From sequence record PQ341120.1: a stretch of 64,000 bases of DNA; one strand, 5' to 3'. The notes below the pieces were generated by a model. The model was not told where the DNA came from. It did no database searches and saw only the letters and a list, made by a program, of their open reading frames with translations. The position numbers and the translations under genes are program-made. Each line of letters opens with the position of its first letter. Positions within the stretch are counted from its first letter, which is position 1. Positions 26,323-32,216 of this stretch are shown piece after piece. Source of the stretch: Escherichia phage EAWsc9.

Positions 26323-27069
26323 ATGATTTTATCCGGAAGAACTGTTGATGAACTCAATGAAAAAGTCCAGGCTGCCTTGGCTAATAATTGGTATTTGTTT
26401 GGTTCTACTATGGTGTTGCCGAATACCCCTACAGATAGCAAAGAGCGTTTTTTCCAAACTATGTCCAGCTCGGAAACTCAGATACCGGGCCCGCCTGGGC
26501 CAAAAGGAGACCCGGGTGTACCAGGACCAAAAGGAGACCCAGGCGGGGATGGAAAGTCTTCTTATCAGATATGGCTTGACTTGGGAAATACAGGAACTGT
26601 TGATGATTTTTTAACTGATACAGCAGGAAAGAGGGAAAAATCCGAGGTGTTTTGGAGTGGTATAAACGTTCTATTAACTAATGGTACGACTTCAAACATA
26701 ATTAGTGTTTTAAAGGGGATTCCACCGACTGCAGGGACTCTATCTCCGTTTTTTAGAACCACTGATGATAAGTTGTGGCCATATAACCAAGACAGAAGCC
26801 TAATGTTTAAACTCAACCTTATTGGTAATTTTGCAGGAGCCTCGCAAGCTCGAAGTATAACATTAAATTTCGTTGGAACCAACGGAAACACTTATATACA
26901 GAATCGTCCGGAAAATGCTACAGATATTTTGTCTTTTACAACGTTCTTTAGCATTGATAAAGATGGGGCAATGGCAACCAATGGTACAGCTATAACTGTT
27001 ATGCCAAATGGCGGCAACTTTACAATAACCTCTGCATTGTTAGTAGCCGAACAAACAGTGACTTCATAA
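26323..27069 (+). CDS. Collagen-like repeat protein with fibre-type C-terminal domain
   Basis: 248 aa plus-strand ORF; AGGAG 6 nt upstream of ATG; eight G-X-Y triplets (GPPGPKGDPGVPGPKGDPGGDGKS) then S-x-Y-Q-I-W-L motif typical of phage fibre proteins. Confidence 0.7.
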   Translation: MILSGRTVDELNEKVQAALANNWYLFGSTMVLPNTPTDSKERFFQTMSSSETQIPGPPGPKGDPGVPGPKGDPGGDGKSSYQIWLDLGNTGTVDDFLTDTAGKREKSEVFWSGINVLLTNGTTSNIISVLKGIPPTAGTLSPFFRTTDDKLWPYNQDRSLMFKLNLIGNFAGASQARSITLNFVGTNGNTYIQNRPENATDILSFTTFFSIDKDGAMATNGTAITVMPNGGNFTITSALLVAEQTVTS

Positions 27070-27287: not shown

Positions 27288-28298
27288 TTAACGATAATAG
27301 GAATTGTGGTTGTCAAGATATACCTCTTCAACAAACTTGTCCCAGAACTTCATGTCTACCTTATCAGGCATACCATTCTTAGCAGCCTGGATGGCCAGAA
27401 CTTCAACTAAATCGACAGTATCTTCAAGAAGTTCTTGAACTTCTTTAAATGGCAATTCACCAGCTTTAATCAGCTTAATGATAGAGGCTTCACGCAATGG
27501 GAATACCAAGTCACCCGTTTGGTAGATTTCCATCAATTGATACCCTGCACGATAAGCATGGCTCAGTGCTTTCCAATCAATACCTTCGTTAGCTTCTGCT
27601 TTACGAGCACGTTCACCATATTCGGCGTCGAGTTTATTCAGAGATTGCTTGAGCTCGATTAATGACAGAGTAGTTTGGTATTTACGACCGAGGACAGTAT
27701 AGAACGTTTGAGGACCTGTTTTCTCATGGTTATGAAATACCCATTCGCAGAACTCGTTTTCAGGGAGTCTGTGTTTGATATCTTCTACCTTAGTACGTCG
27801 TTGCTTAGCGGAACCATCTTCTTGATAGTCAACCCATTGTTCAGGAATCTGGTTAACAATTTCCAATACACCACGCAGTGCAGCCAATCGAGAACCTTTA
27901 ACACCATATTTGGAAGCTTGCTTACGGACGTACCCCAAATAGGCTTTCATGTTAGTTGTATAGAACCGTGAACGGTTGTCCTGAATAAACTTCCATACAT
28001 CTGGTAAATCGGATTTGACTATCAGGTCAGCCGGGGTGTGAATCATATCCAGAGCAACGGTTTCGCCATCAGCCGCCAGTTTAAAGAAATATTTCAGACT
28101 ATAAAGTTCATGGTCAACATCATCTTTTGTATTTTTGGTAGCCGTGTTATTCGTGTTCAGGTTGGTATGGTTCATCGCGGTTCCGAGCAGGATATCTCGC
28201 GGATGAGGAACAAAGATTTCTTTAAAATCGACATCAGATTCCGGGGTACTTGTTCCATAAAGATGGCTACCGAAGTAGCCTTTCATAATAGCTTTCAT
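27288..28298 (-). CDS. Putative Pol-beta-superfamily nucleotidyltransferase
   Basis: ORF 27288..28328 (non-ATG start codon) trimmed to ATG with GAGGA upstream; N-terminal motif GSHLYGTSTPESDVDF resembles the G[GS]-x9-13-DhD NTase signature. Confidence 0.45.
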   Translation of the reverse strand: MKAIMKGYFGSHLYGTSTPESDVDFKEIFVPHPRDILLGTAMNHTNLNTNNTATKNTKDDVDHELYSLKYFFKLAADGETVALDMIHTPADLIVKSDLPDVWKFIQDNRSRFYTTNMKAYLGYVRKQASKYGVKGSRLAALRGVLEIVNQIPEQWVDYQEDGSAKQRRTKVEDIKHRLPENEFCEWVFHNHEKTGPQTFYTVLGRKYQTTLSLIELKQSLNKLDAEYGERARKAEANEGIDWKALSHAYRAGYQLMEIYQTGDLVFPLREASIIKLIKAGELPFKEVQELLEDTVDLVEVLAIQAAKNGMPDKVDMKFWDKFVEEVYLDNHNSYYR

Positions 28299-28747
28299 TC
28301 TTTGTCCTCGAAGTGGATTACTGGGCACATCTTAGATTTACGAGCTTTGATATATTGAATGAAAACATTTTCTTTAATTTCCTTTCCTTCACGTTTAGCT
28401 TTAATGCGTTCCCATTCTTTTTCTTCTTTACGTAAATCGTACCAGGCCCATAAATTCATTAGACCATACATTAGACCAAATGCTACCGTCAGAATAAGAG
28501 CCAGTGTAGCTAGTCCTAAAATAAACCCTAAGCCTAAACCGACCGGGGTGCTTAATACAAAGAAATGCTCTAATACACCTGCACCCGCGACAGTTAATCC
28601 AAAAACCATACTACCGATAAAAACGGCACAAACAAAACAAGCCCAAACCATTTTCCAGAAATAAGCACACAAAGAGTGTGGACGAGAATGACGGTCATAA
28701 AAACGGTCGTGGAAACGAGCGTGCCATGAGTTTGTATTGATAATCAT
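28295..28747 (-). CDS. Hypothetical membrane protein
   Basis: 150 aa with three or four hydrophobic helices. Confidence 0.5.
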   Translation of the reverse strand: MIINTNSWHARFHDRFYDRHSRPHSLCAYFWKMVWACFVCAVFIGSMVFGLTVAGAGVLEHFFVLSTPVGLGLGFILGLATLALILTVAFGLMYGLMNLWAWYDLRKEEKEWERIKAKREGKEIKENVFIQYIKARKSKMCPVIHFEDKE

Positions 28748-28758
28748 AATAATTTTCC

Positions 28759-29319
28759 TTAAGAGTTCATAGTTGGGATAACAGAGTTCAGATAAGAGAC
28801 TAAAACTTTTAGCTCGTCCTTAGTAAATACCACTTCACTTTCGCCGTCATGTCTTTGGACAATAGATAACAGGTCACGGCCGTTATGTTGATGCACAGTT
28901 AATTCAGTATTATAATCTAGTTCCTCTTCATCGCCTTCAAACGTTTCACTAGAGCGAATCAGTGCATCTTGTCCCGGAACTTTCCATTCAACTTCCGGTT
29001 TACATTCTTCCTGGAAGAGTTTGAAAATACAATCAAAGAATTTATCAGAATCGCTAATGCTCAGGCATTCTATACCATTTTCCAGATTAAACCCATTTTC
29101 ATTTTTATAGATATAAGCGTATAGCTCATCGTTAATATCGACAGGAGCACTATTACGTCCATTGAGATAGTCAGCTCTATCCAAAACCATTAAATCATAA
29201 AGTGGTTTAATATCTTGGATAGTCAGTACGATTTTATCGTCTTCTTGGCAAAGCTCGATTGCGTTATTAACCACTTCAGCAGTCAGTTCGCCAAACAATT
29301 CAGTTGTTTCAATAATCAT
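28759..29319 (-). CDS. Hypothetical acidic protein
   Basis: 186 aa ORF. Confidence 0.5.
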   Translation of the reverse strand: MIIETTELFGELTAEVVNNAIELCQEDDKIVLTIQDIKPLYDLMVLDRADYLNGRNSAPVDINDELYAYIYKNENGFNLENGIECLSISDSDKFFDCIFKLFQEECKPEVEWKVPGQDALIRSSETFEGDEEELDYNTELTVHQHNGRDLLSIVQRHDGESEVVFTKDELKVLVSYLNSVIPTMNS

Positions 29320-29329
29320 TTTCTGTTCC

Positions 29330-29614
29330 TCAACGGTTATGTTTTAAAATACTATAAAGCGCTTCTACTTGGCTTGCATCCAGGTAAATAACATCATCAT
29401 CTTGCTCAATGGAAATCCCACCGGTATTACCTTTAACAAAATTACATTCGCATACTTCAACTGGGCGGTATACGTCACCAACTGGATGCTCAGGCTCCAG
29501 AACAATCACACCATTTTCAGAATTACCGCTTGGGTCATATAACATTACATTTTCCTCACTAACCACGAAAAGAATAAACCGATTAAAATAGGACCTATAA
29601 TCATTGTTGACCAA
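29330..29614 (-). CDS. Hypothetical protein
   Basis: 94 aa ORF. Confidence 0.45.
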   Translation of the reverse strand: MVNNDYRSYFNRFILFVVSEENVMLYDPSGNSENGVIVLEPEHPVGDVYRPVEVCECNFVKGNTGGISIEQDDDVIYLDASQVEALYSILKHNR

Positions 29615-29636
29615 GCCCAGGGTTCTAAGTAATAAA

Positions 29637-29894
29637 TCATCTCATGCTCCTGTGCCAACAATTTCTTGGTTCACGTTTAAAAATTTCATCATGCATTGAT
29701 TGACAACCAACACAATATATCACACCTTTAATCGCTTGTCTCCGCGCTTCAGGAATTTTTTCGTCGCAGTCAAAACAGAATTCAGCAGACTCCCTTTCAA
29801 CTGCAACTTGTGCTCGTGCGTGAACGATAGCGGCTTGGACAACCGCTTCCATCTCTAACTGTTCAGCACCATCTTTTGCAAATCCAACAGCCAT
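29637..29894 (-). CDS. TraR/DksA-type C4 zinc-finger protein
   Basis: 85 aa; CFDCDEKIPEARRQAIKGVIYCVGC matches CxxC-x17-CxxC of TraR/DksA family. Confidence 0.5.
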   Translation of the reverse strand: MAVGFAKDGAEQLEMEAVVQAAIVHARAQVAVERESAEFCFDCDEKIPEARRQAIKGVIYCVGCQSMHDEIFKREPRNCWHRSMR

Positions 29895-30076
29895 TATTCT
29901 TTCAACTCATTCAGATAAGCAATTAATTCTTCTTTAGAACTATTCAAATCACGCTTGCACTGTTCTATTCCAGAATATGAATAACCTTCACAATATTCAA
30001 CAGCCAGGTCATTGGATGCATTTTCAATGTGCCAGGCGAGTTTGATAATTTTTTCAATCTGTTCAGTAGTTAACAT
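29894..30076 (-). CDS. Hypothetical small protein
   Basis: 60 aa ORF. Confidence 0.4.
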   Translation of the reverse strand: MLTTEQIEKIIKLAWHIENASNDLAVEYCEGYSYSGIEQCKRDLNSSKEELIAYLNELKE

Positions 30077-30314
30077 AATATCACCAGTATTTTTTGATGG
30101 TAGAAATTAATTCTTGGACTTGAGTAGTCTTCAGCTTACACCCACAACCCTTTAAGGTATCTTTAAGGAGCCATGGTTCCTTGAGCTCATCCTTTTCCAG
30201 GCGAATTCTATATCCGCGGTAATCAGCAAATATGCTTCCGTCATCAAATATCTTAATTTCAAGAATATGATTATTGGTTTCATATTCTTGAAACCATGGT
30301 ATTTGTAAGTTTCA

Positions 30315-30521
30315 TTATTCCACCACATATGATAATGAGAAAATTGCTGATGAAAGATGGGTAGCATCTTCTTCACACAGTTCAAATGGAGCTTTCTGTA
30401 AGAGTTCAACCACTTCTTCATCAGTGGCACTGTCCATAAAGATTGCATAATCATTAAGATAGATAACAACCTCATCACCAGTATTAACTGCATCAATCTT
30501 GATATTTTTAATTCTCATCAT
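30315..30521 (-). CDS. Hypothetical small acidic protein
   Basis: 68 aa; preferred over overlapping low-complexity frame 30152..30496. Confidence 0.45.
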   Translation of the reverse strand: MMRIKNIKIDAVNTGDEVVIYLNDYAIFMDSATDEEVVELLQKAPFELCEEDATHLSSAIFSLSYVVE

Positions 30522-30546: not shown

Positions 30547-30576
30547 ATAGTACACCCTTTTTATGAGGATGTAAAC
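30547..30576 (-). promoter_or_regulatory. Early sigma70-type promoter (GTTTAC-18-TACTAT)
   Basis: Followed by conserved leader tcccatcaactactgaggag. Confidence 0.4.
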
Positions 30577-30588
30577 CCCCTAAATGAA

Positions 30589-30616
30589 AAAAGGTCCACC
30601 CGAAGGCAGACCTTTT
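30589..30616 (-). terminator. Rho-independent terminator with UUCG-containing loop
   Basis: Minus strand aaaaggtctgccTTCGggtggacctttt followed by U-rich tract; directly after stop of 30620..31003. Confidence 0.5.
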
Positions 30617-31643: not shown

Positions 31644-32216
31644 TCAGCTTGTTAATTCGAGCCAATGTTTTCTGCATAAAGATACGTACGATTCATTCCC
31701 ACCGACTAACACTTGCTCGCCGTCCTTTACAGCAGCACCGTCGATTACTCTCGCGGTCATGGTTGCTTTCCGGCCGCAATGACAGACGCCCTTTAATTCA
31801 ACCAGTTTATCCGAAATAGCCAGAAGTCTGGCTGAACCGGGAAATAATTGACCCCGAAAATCTGTTCTTAACCCGTAACACATAACGGGGATATTGTAAT
31901 TATCAACCACTTGAGCTAACTGGTCAATTTGCTCTGGTAACAAAAATTGAGCTTCATCGACCAGGACACAGTGGATATCCTTTTGAGACTCGGCCCATTT
32001 ATAGAATTCAAACAGGTTCATGTCGGCCGTTACCAGGTTTGCTTCCTGGCTAATACCAATACGTGATTTAATTTCAGATTCCGAGTCCCGATTATCAATA
32101 ACAGGTTTTAGCAAAAGCACGCTCATTCCACGCTCTTTATAGGAATAAGCTGCAGTCAGCAATGAAGCTGTTTTGCCTGCATTCATTGCTGCGTAATGAT
32201 AAATTAAACTCGCCAT
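31644..32216 (-). CDS. tk: Thymidine kinase
   Basis: 190 aa; P-loop AAMNAGKT, C-terminal zinc ribbon CHCGRKA; similar to T4 Tk. Confidence 0.92.
   Translation of the reverse strand: MASLIYHYAAMNAGKTASLLTAAYSYKERGMSVLLLKPVIDNRDSESEIKSRIGISQEANLVTADMNLFEFYKWAESQKDIHCVLVDEAQFLLPEQIDQLAQVVDNYNIPVMCYGLRTDFRGQLFPGSARLLAISDKLVELKGVCHCGRKATMTARVIDGAAVKDGEQVLVGGNESYVSLCRKHWLELTS

Follow-up and report, generated by a model that had tools for sequence, protein, structure and literature searches.

A YbiI-type member of the DksA/TraR zinc-finger family in a T4-like phage is a candidate regulator of host RNA polymerase

The stretch of DNA analysed here (the window) comprises 64,000 nucleotides of Escherichia phage EAWsc9 (PQ341120.1). 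The gene under study lies on the minus strand, which the preliminary description of the sequence had not given, and its open reading frame exactly fills positions 29637..29894, with an ATG start at 29894-29892 and a TGA stop at 29639-29637. It encodes an 85-aa protein, MAVGFAKDGAEQLEMEAVVQAAIVHARAQVAVERESAEFCFDCDEKIPEARRQAIKGVIYCVGCQSMHDEIFKREPRNCWHRSMR. The preliminary description had reported a C4 motif, CFDC-x17-CVGC, behind an acidic helical N-terminus; the translated ORF contains exactly this motif (C40-F-D-C43, 17 residues, C61-V-G-C64), and the N-terminus proves mildly acidic, with four acidic and two basic residues in positions 1-30, and is predicted by AlphaFold2 to be helical over residues 10-29. 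A plus-strand ORF at 29700-29858 (52 aa, TTG start) was set aside because codon-level constraint is found in the minus-strand frame. The features of the gene and its immediate surroundings are as follows.

29637..29894, minus strand: coding sequence, including the stop codon, of the 85-aa C4 zinc-finger protein, DksA/TraR family, YbiI-like (ORF, family matches, dN/dS).
29859..29894, minus strand: N-terminal tip, codons 1-12, MAVGFAKDGAEQ, invariant among the phage sequences (n = 23).
29808..29867, minus strand: predicted N-terminal helix, residues 10-29, counterpart of the channel-filling TraR N-helix (AlphaFold2 model; Foldseek matches 6n57_M and 5w1s_M).
29703..29777, minus strand: C4 zinc finger, C40-x2-C43-x17-C61-x2-C64 (Pfam; four cysteines invariant, n = 58 homologues).
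29739..29756, minus strand: I47-P48-E49-A50-R51-R52, equivalent to TraR I44-P45-E46-A47-R48-R49 (HMMER alignment to TraR).
29682..29711, minus strand: C-terminal helix (predicted), residues 62-71, corresponding to the C-helix by which TraR touches beta lobe-Si1 (AlphaFold2; Foldseek).
29640..29681, minus strand: C-terminal tail, residues 72-85, IFKREPRNCWHRSMR region, with RNCWHRSMR invariant in the phage clade.
29894..30076, minus strand: upstream 60-aa ORF, DUF7438, phrog_653, whose TAA overlaps the zinc-finger ATG (TAATG).
29545..29640, minus strand: downstream 31-aa hydrophobic ORF, phrog_12165, whose ATG overlaps the zinc-finger TGA (ATGA).
30547..30575, minus strand: sigma-70-type promoter-like site, TTTACA-17-TACTAT, the nearest candidate for the small-ORF run, kept in phages VR20 and VR26.
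30589..30616, minus strand: strong intrinsic-terminator-like hairpin, 12-bp stem followed by a T run, closing the upstream tk-rI unit.

T4-like genomes have a variable early-gene region, tk - rI - mobD, to which this locus belongs. Along the minus strand, tk (31644-32216) is followed by a 91-aa ORF, the rI antiholin, a DUF5856 protein, the terminator-like hairpin and the promoter-like site; there follows a run of co-oriented small ORFs with overlapping stops and starts (68 aa, a frameshifted 78 aa, the 60-aa DUF7438 ORF, the zinc finger, the 31-aa hydrophobic ORF and a 71-aa DUF7189 ORF), and then a y05I-like protein, a membrane protein and a nucleotidyltransferase. The TAATG overlap suggests that the DUF7438 ORF and the zinc-finger gene are translationally coupled. 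Terminator-like sites were found 10 times against 4.0 expected; promoter-like sites numbered 16 against 19.6 expected from shuffles, and because this count does not rise above the shuffles the site at 30575-30547 is only a candidate. Reading about 700 nt upstream revealed no TATAAATA late promoter. Early expression is plausible, given the position of the gene among co-oriented small ORFs of a T4-type early region and the candidate promoter-like site. We note that the hairpin and the promoter-like site, at most 15 nt apart, divide the tk-rI unit from the small-ORF cluster, and that the pair is kept in VR20 and VR26.

Over 2.7 kb around the gene the window is 99.6% identical to Yersinia phage vB_YenM_P8 (hereafter P8), 99.0% identical to Escherichia phage ECML-359 and 88-96% identical to T4-like coliphages of the VR7/VR20/SP18 type. 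The identical protein in P8 (ORF104) is annotated 'TraR family C-4 type zinc finger protein', a label also used for UPEC07 and UPEC01. A DksA/TraR domain was listed for the T4-like phage 44RR in 2006 (PMC1524935), a 2015 genome note described the gene as prevalent among T4-like phages and absent from T4, and the concept that phage TraR homologues reprogram host RNA polymerase (RNAP) has been published (PMC9239242). Since an identical protein with the same annotation is already in GenBank and the concept is in print, the finding is correct yet already known: the family membership of the gene is ordinary and its identity is not new.

Orthologues in T4-like phages are found at the same locus, with rI/DUF5856 on one side and the nucleotidyltransferase on the other, and this placement persists in relatives with as little as about 72% protein identity. 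In jumbo-phage contigs and at the most distant orthologue loci, none of the genes that neighbour it in the window were found beside it, and because the immediate neighbours change and are absent from distant loci, the zinc-finger gene behaves as a stand-alone gene. A module made up of the zinc finger with the 60-aa DUF7438 and 31-aa ORFs was considered and rejected, as the three co-occur only in the closest relatives and not in Merlin-like or jumbo phages.

Three observations concern other parts of this region. The 78-aa ORF (30081-30317, minus strand), which lies between the 68-aa and 60-aa ORFs in P8, VR20, VR26 and L004, is frameshifted in the window by a 2-bp (TT) deletion at about 30277-30279, such that the ATG frame ends after 11 codons and the long frame lacks a canonical start; this reflects either a pseudogene or an error of sequencing or assembly. 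A 248-aa ORF on the plus strand (26323-27069), the strand opposite to that of its neighbours, contains a collagen-like GPPGPKGDPGVPGPKGDPGG stretch and is named 'tail needle knob' in P8. Lastly, several product names in the P8 record (PP693301.1; L001, corresponding to window 27288-30521) look like name-transfer errors: ORFs of the T4 mobD region are named 'molybdopterin-guanine dinucleotide biosynthesis protein MobD', the y05I-like protein is named 'thymidine kinase' and the RlaP-like nucleotidyltransferase is named 'thioredoxin'.

The zinc-finger reading frame is under purifying selection. We compared the window gene with 22 orthologous genes from related phage contigs by the Nei-Gojobori method and obtained dN/dS values of 0.03-0.24 for the 15 pairs with estimable dS; dS was saturated in six further pairs and one orthologue was identical. 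The full-length frame is intact in all 23 compared sequences, and every one of them has the same residues 1-12 (MAVGFAKDGAEQ) and the same C-terminal nine (RNCWHRSMR), barring a single GTG start codon. Synonymous codon changes occur throughout, the invariant N- and C-terminal residues included, which identifies the protein, as opposed to an overlapping nucleotide signal, as the level at which the constraint acts. Truncated or fused remnants of the gene are known in other T4-like phages (phrog_25948, RPN187 gp103), and one could imagine on this account that the ORF of the window is itself a chance ORF or a decaying, non-functional remnant. We consider this barely credible: it is refuted by the intact frame in 23 of 23 sequences, by the dN/dS values and by the invariance of cysteines, tip and tail amid synonymous variation, and it is further opposed by tblastn matches in 681 phage records (among them phages of Klebsiella, Escherichia, Acinetobacter, Erwinia and Aeromonas, and jumbo phages of about 350 kb), 411 of which cover 80% or more of the length. 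The gene is genuine and under constraint.

The remnants themselves form a two-part ORF of 49-64 aa in some Mosigvirus-type and related phages (proteins P0048, P0049, P0058, P0059 and P0063; phrog_25948; gp103 of Escherichia phage RPN187, L030 2459-2623). The N-terminal part resembles the DUF7189 ORF (window 29330-29545, 'MLYD...'); a 'VIY' microhomology marks the junction, beyond which come the final 30 aa of the zinc-finger protein, comprising the second CxxC, the C-helix and RNCWHRSMR. As the first CxxC is missing, a C4 site cannot form in these proteins. The full fusion is present in about 25 phage records.

Membership in the DksA/TraR family is clear from several models, with scores far above chance. 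The protein matches Pfam PF01258 (zf-dskA_traR) over residues 38-66 with 36.3 bits (gathering cut-off 24.9; E 5.7e-9), and PHROG 54, 'DksA-like zinc-finger protein', over residues 12-77 (E 3.9e-20). The top-scoring NCBIfam model is the YbiI-type NF008243 (PRK11019; residues 1-71, E 3.5e-21), whose curated equivalog cut-off is missed (75.4 bits against 96); the second-ranked, the TraR subfamily model TIGR02419 (C4_traR_proteo), is likewise missed at 52.1 bits against 59.7, and the model for DksA proper, NF033459, is essentially unmatched (12.8 bits, cut-off 105). The solved structure that matches best by sequence is E. coli YbiI (2kgo, E 1.2e-9), followed by F-plasmid TraR in its RNAP complexes (5w1s and 6n57, E about 2e-4), with IPEARR identical. 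A profile of the phage and YbiI sequences aligned in hhalign with a profile of 26 TraR-type proteins at 99.7% probability (E 1.7e-26, residues 12-73).

Scanning 1.84 billion cluster representatives for homologues yielded 395 clusters at E <= 1e-3 and only seven at E <= 1e-10, with the phage form accounting for one 50%-identity cluster and one truncated remnant. Four viral contigs (L026-L029) that match RNCWHRSM were discarded as chance matches, lying in an alternative frame within a 307-aa gene. Our survey of subtypes covered 214 sequences (211 collected homologues, TraR, YbiI and the window protein), among which two subtypes stand out: a TraR type of about 70 aa, with the N-terminus M(A)DxxDxA and without a tail, and a YbiI type of 85-91 aa, with the N-terminus MAxG[F/W]AxDGAxQ. 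We took as YbiI-type those sequences with this N-terminal signature and an Asp 31-33 residues ahead of the first Cys; the signature occurs in 133 of the 214. The window protein carries it (MAVGFAKDGAEQ), with D8 32 residues before C40. About two-thirds of the YbiI-type sequences have a conserved C-terminal tail, either the bacterial ..YNRRGSKDSQLR or the phage ..PRNCWHRSMR; in the window protein the bacterial tail is absent and ..PRNCWHRSMR stands in its place. Tails that bridge the two forms are found in P0068 (HNRKVWHRSMR) and P0092 (NRKANYHTQLR). By these features of its sequence, the window protein belongs to the YbiI type, as a phage form of it, and is not TraR proper.

We also note a further small subgroup of DksA/TraR-type zinc-finger proteins (P0140, P0144, P0152, P0157, P0158, P0162 and P0207), which has an N-terminal signature of its own (MSGMGGPD.. 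or ..GY[IA]G..) as well as its own hydrophobic C-terminal tails (..MLTKML, ..LTYMT, ..MFTYMP). The existence of a separate subgroup with its own signature and tails raises the possibility that distinct pairings of tip and tail are a general theme of the family.

The preliminary description had named the lack of a DksA-like fold, together with a lack of RNA polymerase binding, as what would refute it; the structural model predicts a TraR-like fold. The AlphaFold2 model, built on 58 homologues (mean pLDDT 73), contains helices at residues 10-29, 49-54 and 62-71 and a weak helix at 80-83, and Foldseek superposes it on RNAP-bound TraR (6n57_M) with TM scores of 0.67/0.78 and an rmsd of 2.3 Å over 70 columns; TraR in 5w1s_M is also matched, and DksA in RNAP complexes (7khi_M, 5vsw_M) more weakly. 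The three-element architecture of N-helix, zinc domain and C-helix is thus present in the predicted model, and in this model, built without RNAP, helix 62-71 overlies the C-helix of TraR. Its tail makes the protein 12 aa longer than the roughly 73-aa TraR.

Work by the Gourse and Darst laboratories has defined how TraR engages RNAP: its N-terminal helix, residues 2-27, extends down the RNAP secondary channel, the beta' rim helices and beta'Si3 are bound by its globular domain, which contains the zinc, and its C-terminal helix contacts beta lobe-Si1 (PMC6970531, PMC9239242). TraR requires P43 and P45 to bind, R48 plays an important part in binding the rim helices, and the Si3 interface includes E46, R49 and K50 (PMC6970531, PMC9239242). 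The equivalents of P45, E46, R48 and R49 in the HMMER alignment are kept in the window protein as P48, E49, R51 and R52; the position of P43 is not conserved, its equivalent being K46. Across the 58 homologues all four cysteines are invariant, as are I47, P48, R51 and R52, and E49 is at least 90% conserved.

The two ends of the protein depart from TraR. D3 and D6 of the TraR DxxDxA motif are required for function (PMC6970531, PMC9239242), as each of them is both in TraR and in lambda Orf73 (PMC9239242). The full motif (D3, D6, A8) is absent from the window protein, whose tip reads M-A-V-G-F5-A-K-D8-G9-A10, so that at best D-x-A is kept, with two or three extra residues preceding the incomplete motif. 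The Asp of YbiI-type sequences lies 31 residues upstream of the first Cys in 83 of 133 cases, the same distance as from TraR D6 to C37, and the comparison suggests that D8-G-A10 corresponds to TraR D6-E-A8, with F5 in place of D3. The predicted positions of the helix ends and the distance to the first Cys point to an offset of 2; HMMER and hhalign give an offset of 3 within the helix, and because the tip falls outside both alignments (the profile-profile alignment covers residues 12-73 only) the equivalence of the tip is uncertain by one residue. The layout of a TraR/DksA-type regulator proposed in the preliminary description therefore stands as regards the family call, the C4 finger, the single N-helix and the three-element fold, and does not extend to the DxxDxA tip or to scores above the TraR and YbiI model cut-offs. 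At the other end, a 14-residue tail, its last nine residues (RNCWHRSMR) invariant, is added after the C-terminal helix.

We note, as a separate matter, that in the phage clade His25 (29820-29822) accompanies the Cys80-Trp-His82 tail (29640-29681), that bacterial YbiI-type proteins have Arg25, and that the intermediate P0068, with the tail VWHRSMR, likewise has His25. From this pairing a contact between tail and helix, or a second metal site, is conceivable; the pairing could equally reflect shared ancestry.

The protein is a member of the DksA/TraR family with a TraR-like predicted fold and conserved rim-helix and Si3 contact residues. From this homology and the predicted fold we infer, with a probability of roughly 0.6, that it binds the secondary channel of host RNAP in the fashion of TraR, without ppGpp, and alters initiation kinetics at host promoters. 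Binding to RNAP would be direct, requiring neither DNA nor ppGpp. The N-terminal helix would extend through the channel in the direction of the active site, the beta' rim helices and beta'Si3 would support the zinc domain with the invariant IPEARR, and the C-terminal helix would pack against beta lobe-Si1. Open-complex kinetics would change as a result, with unstable host promoters (rRNA, ribosomal-protein) being inhibited and RNAP being released for phage promoters, presumably early in infection. Five phage or prophage TraR homologues have been tested by the Gourse laboratory (lambda Orf73, P2 Orf82, VP882 Orf61, VHML Orf8 and X. bovienii Gp34), and each of them was able to bind RNAP, to compete with DksA and to inhibit rrnB P1 (PMC9239242).

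The tip bears on whether the outcome would be that of TraR. TraR S2 already lies 4.3 Å from the catalytic Mg2+ (PMC6970531), so the extra N-terminal residues of the window protein may not fit the same binding mode, and an N-terminal extension has been suggested as lowering the activity of VHML Orf8 (PMC9239242). It is possible, if improbable, that the protein binds the secondary channel as a mere plug, excluding DksA, GreA and GreB or blocking the catalytic centre, without allosteric tuning of promoters. Such a role would accord with the missing first Asp, with the invariant F5-A-K-D8-G9-A10 in an extended, Gly-rich tip and with the closeness of TraR S2 to Mg2+; moreover, D3N cripples inhibition by Orf73 and D-to-N variants of DksA still bind RNAP (PMC9239242), and Rnk provides a precedent for a channel binder that only competes. 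However, Gp34, which lacks D3, still inhibits rrnB P1 with an IC50 of 415 nM (PMC9239242), Gp34 and P2 Orf82 (which lacks A8) both being active at reduced potency (PMC9239242). In addition, a 2009 paper states, as 'data not shown', that a dksA mutant was rescued from its amino-acid auxotrophy by overexpression of E. coli YbiI (PMC2613031), a rescue that needs activation of amino-acid promoters and so speaks against simple plugging.

A second alternative dispenses with RNAP: the YbiI-like subtype might act on another target, a host protein or nucleic acid, through its N-terminal hook and basic tail, with the likeness to TraR reflecting only a shared scaffold. The two most conserved segments of the protein, tip and tail, are precisely those that it does not have in common with TraR, ybiI is sigma-S dependent (PMC4447067) and the authors who first noted this suggested a link to iron metabolism; the authors of a study of TraR homologues (PMC9239242) warn that some intermediate-length C4 proteins of the family lack DksA/TraR activity, and the Merlin genome note gives the function of the gene as unknown. 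Against this, the invariant IPEARR comprises the rim-helix and Si3 residues of TraR, including the P45 needed for binding, and the conformation that TraR adopts on RNAP can be superposed on the predicted fold. The examined gene neighbourhoods of two bacterial YbiI-type genes, which have nothing in common, yield no functional clue in another direction, and in the literature on 'ybiI' the relevant results are confined to sigma-S dependence and the 2009 dksA rescue. We regard a target other than RNAP as unlikely.

A more speculative proposal, to which we attach little weight, is that YbiI-type proteins, the phage clade included, constitute a distinct class of secondary-channel factor, in which the tip acts as a hook into the active centre and the tail clamps a second site on RNAP or a partner, with an outcome unlike that of TraR. 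The MAVGFAKDGA hook is longer than the TraR tip, which itself approaches Mg2+ to 4.3 Å, and could thus reach the active centre. If this were so, the result might be, for example, a general shut-off of transcription, or the exclusion of DksA and Gre factors during T4-like infection.

If the TraR-like function that we favour is correct, a ppGpp-independent switch that lowers host ribosome synthesis by way of the RNAP secondary channel is present in many T4-like and jumbo phages. T4 lacks this switch, which would be an addition to ADP-ribosylation, AsiA/MotA and Alc, the classical tools of T4. This would carry an established principle, that of TraR and lambda Orf73, over to lytic phages and would not be a new one. 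An account of what the YbiI-type tip (MAVGFAKDGA) and tail (RNCWHRSMR) add would also give E. coli YbiI a function.

Among known relatives, the closest are the annotated orthologues in UPEC07, the Citrobacter phages Merlin and Moon, 44RR (ORF130c) and Asteriusvirus-type 350-kb phages, which are labelled TraR family or DksA-like zinc finger and do not differ in substance from the window protein; the orthologues in P8 and ECML-359 are identical to it, and others from T4-like and jumbo phages are 60-98% identical. E. coli YbiI (2KGO), its best match by sequence, and bacterial YbiI-type proteins share with it 35-48% identity, the MAxG[F/W]AxDGAxQ signature and a length of 85-91 aa; unlike the window gene, ybiI is chromosomal and sigma-S dependent. 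The bacterial YbiI-type proteins similarly have a conserved C-terminal tail ending in a hydrophobic residue and Arg, but theirs reads NRRGSKDSQLR where that of the window protein reads RNCWHRSMR. With DksA the protein shares the Pfam zinc-finger domain, and its D-x-A resembles the channel-tip D74-R-A76, whereas the two-helix coiled coil is replaced by a single N-helix and the length is about half (85 against ~150 aa); residues of a ppGpp site are not identifiable in it. Like the tested TraR homologues it is small, phage-encoded and devoid of a DksA-type coiled coil; those homologues come from temperate phages and conjugative elements, while the window phage is lytic and T4-like. With F-plasmid TraR (5W1S, 6N57) it has in common the single N-helix and the C-helix as predicted, the C4 zinc domain, the CxxC-x17-CxxC spacing and IPEARR. 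It differs from TraR in an overall identity of 25-30%, in the replacement of DxxDxA by F-A-K-D-G-A behind M-A-V-G, and in 12 more residues, which form an invariant basic tail.
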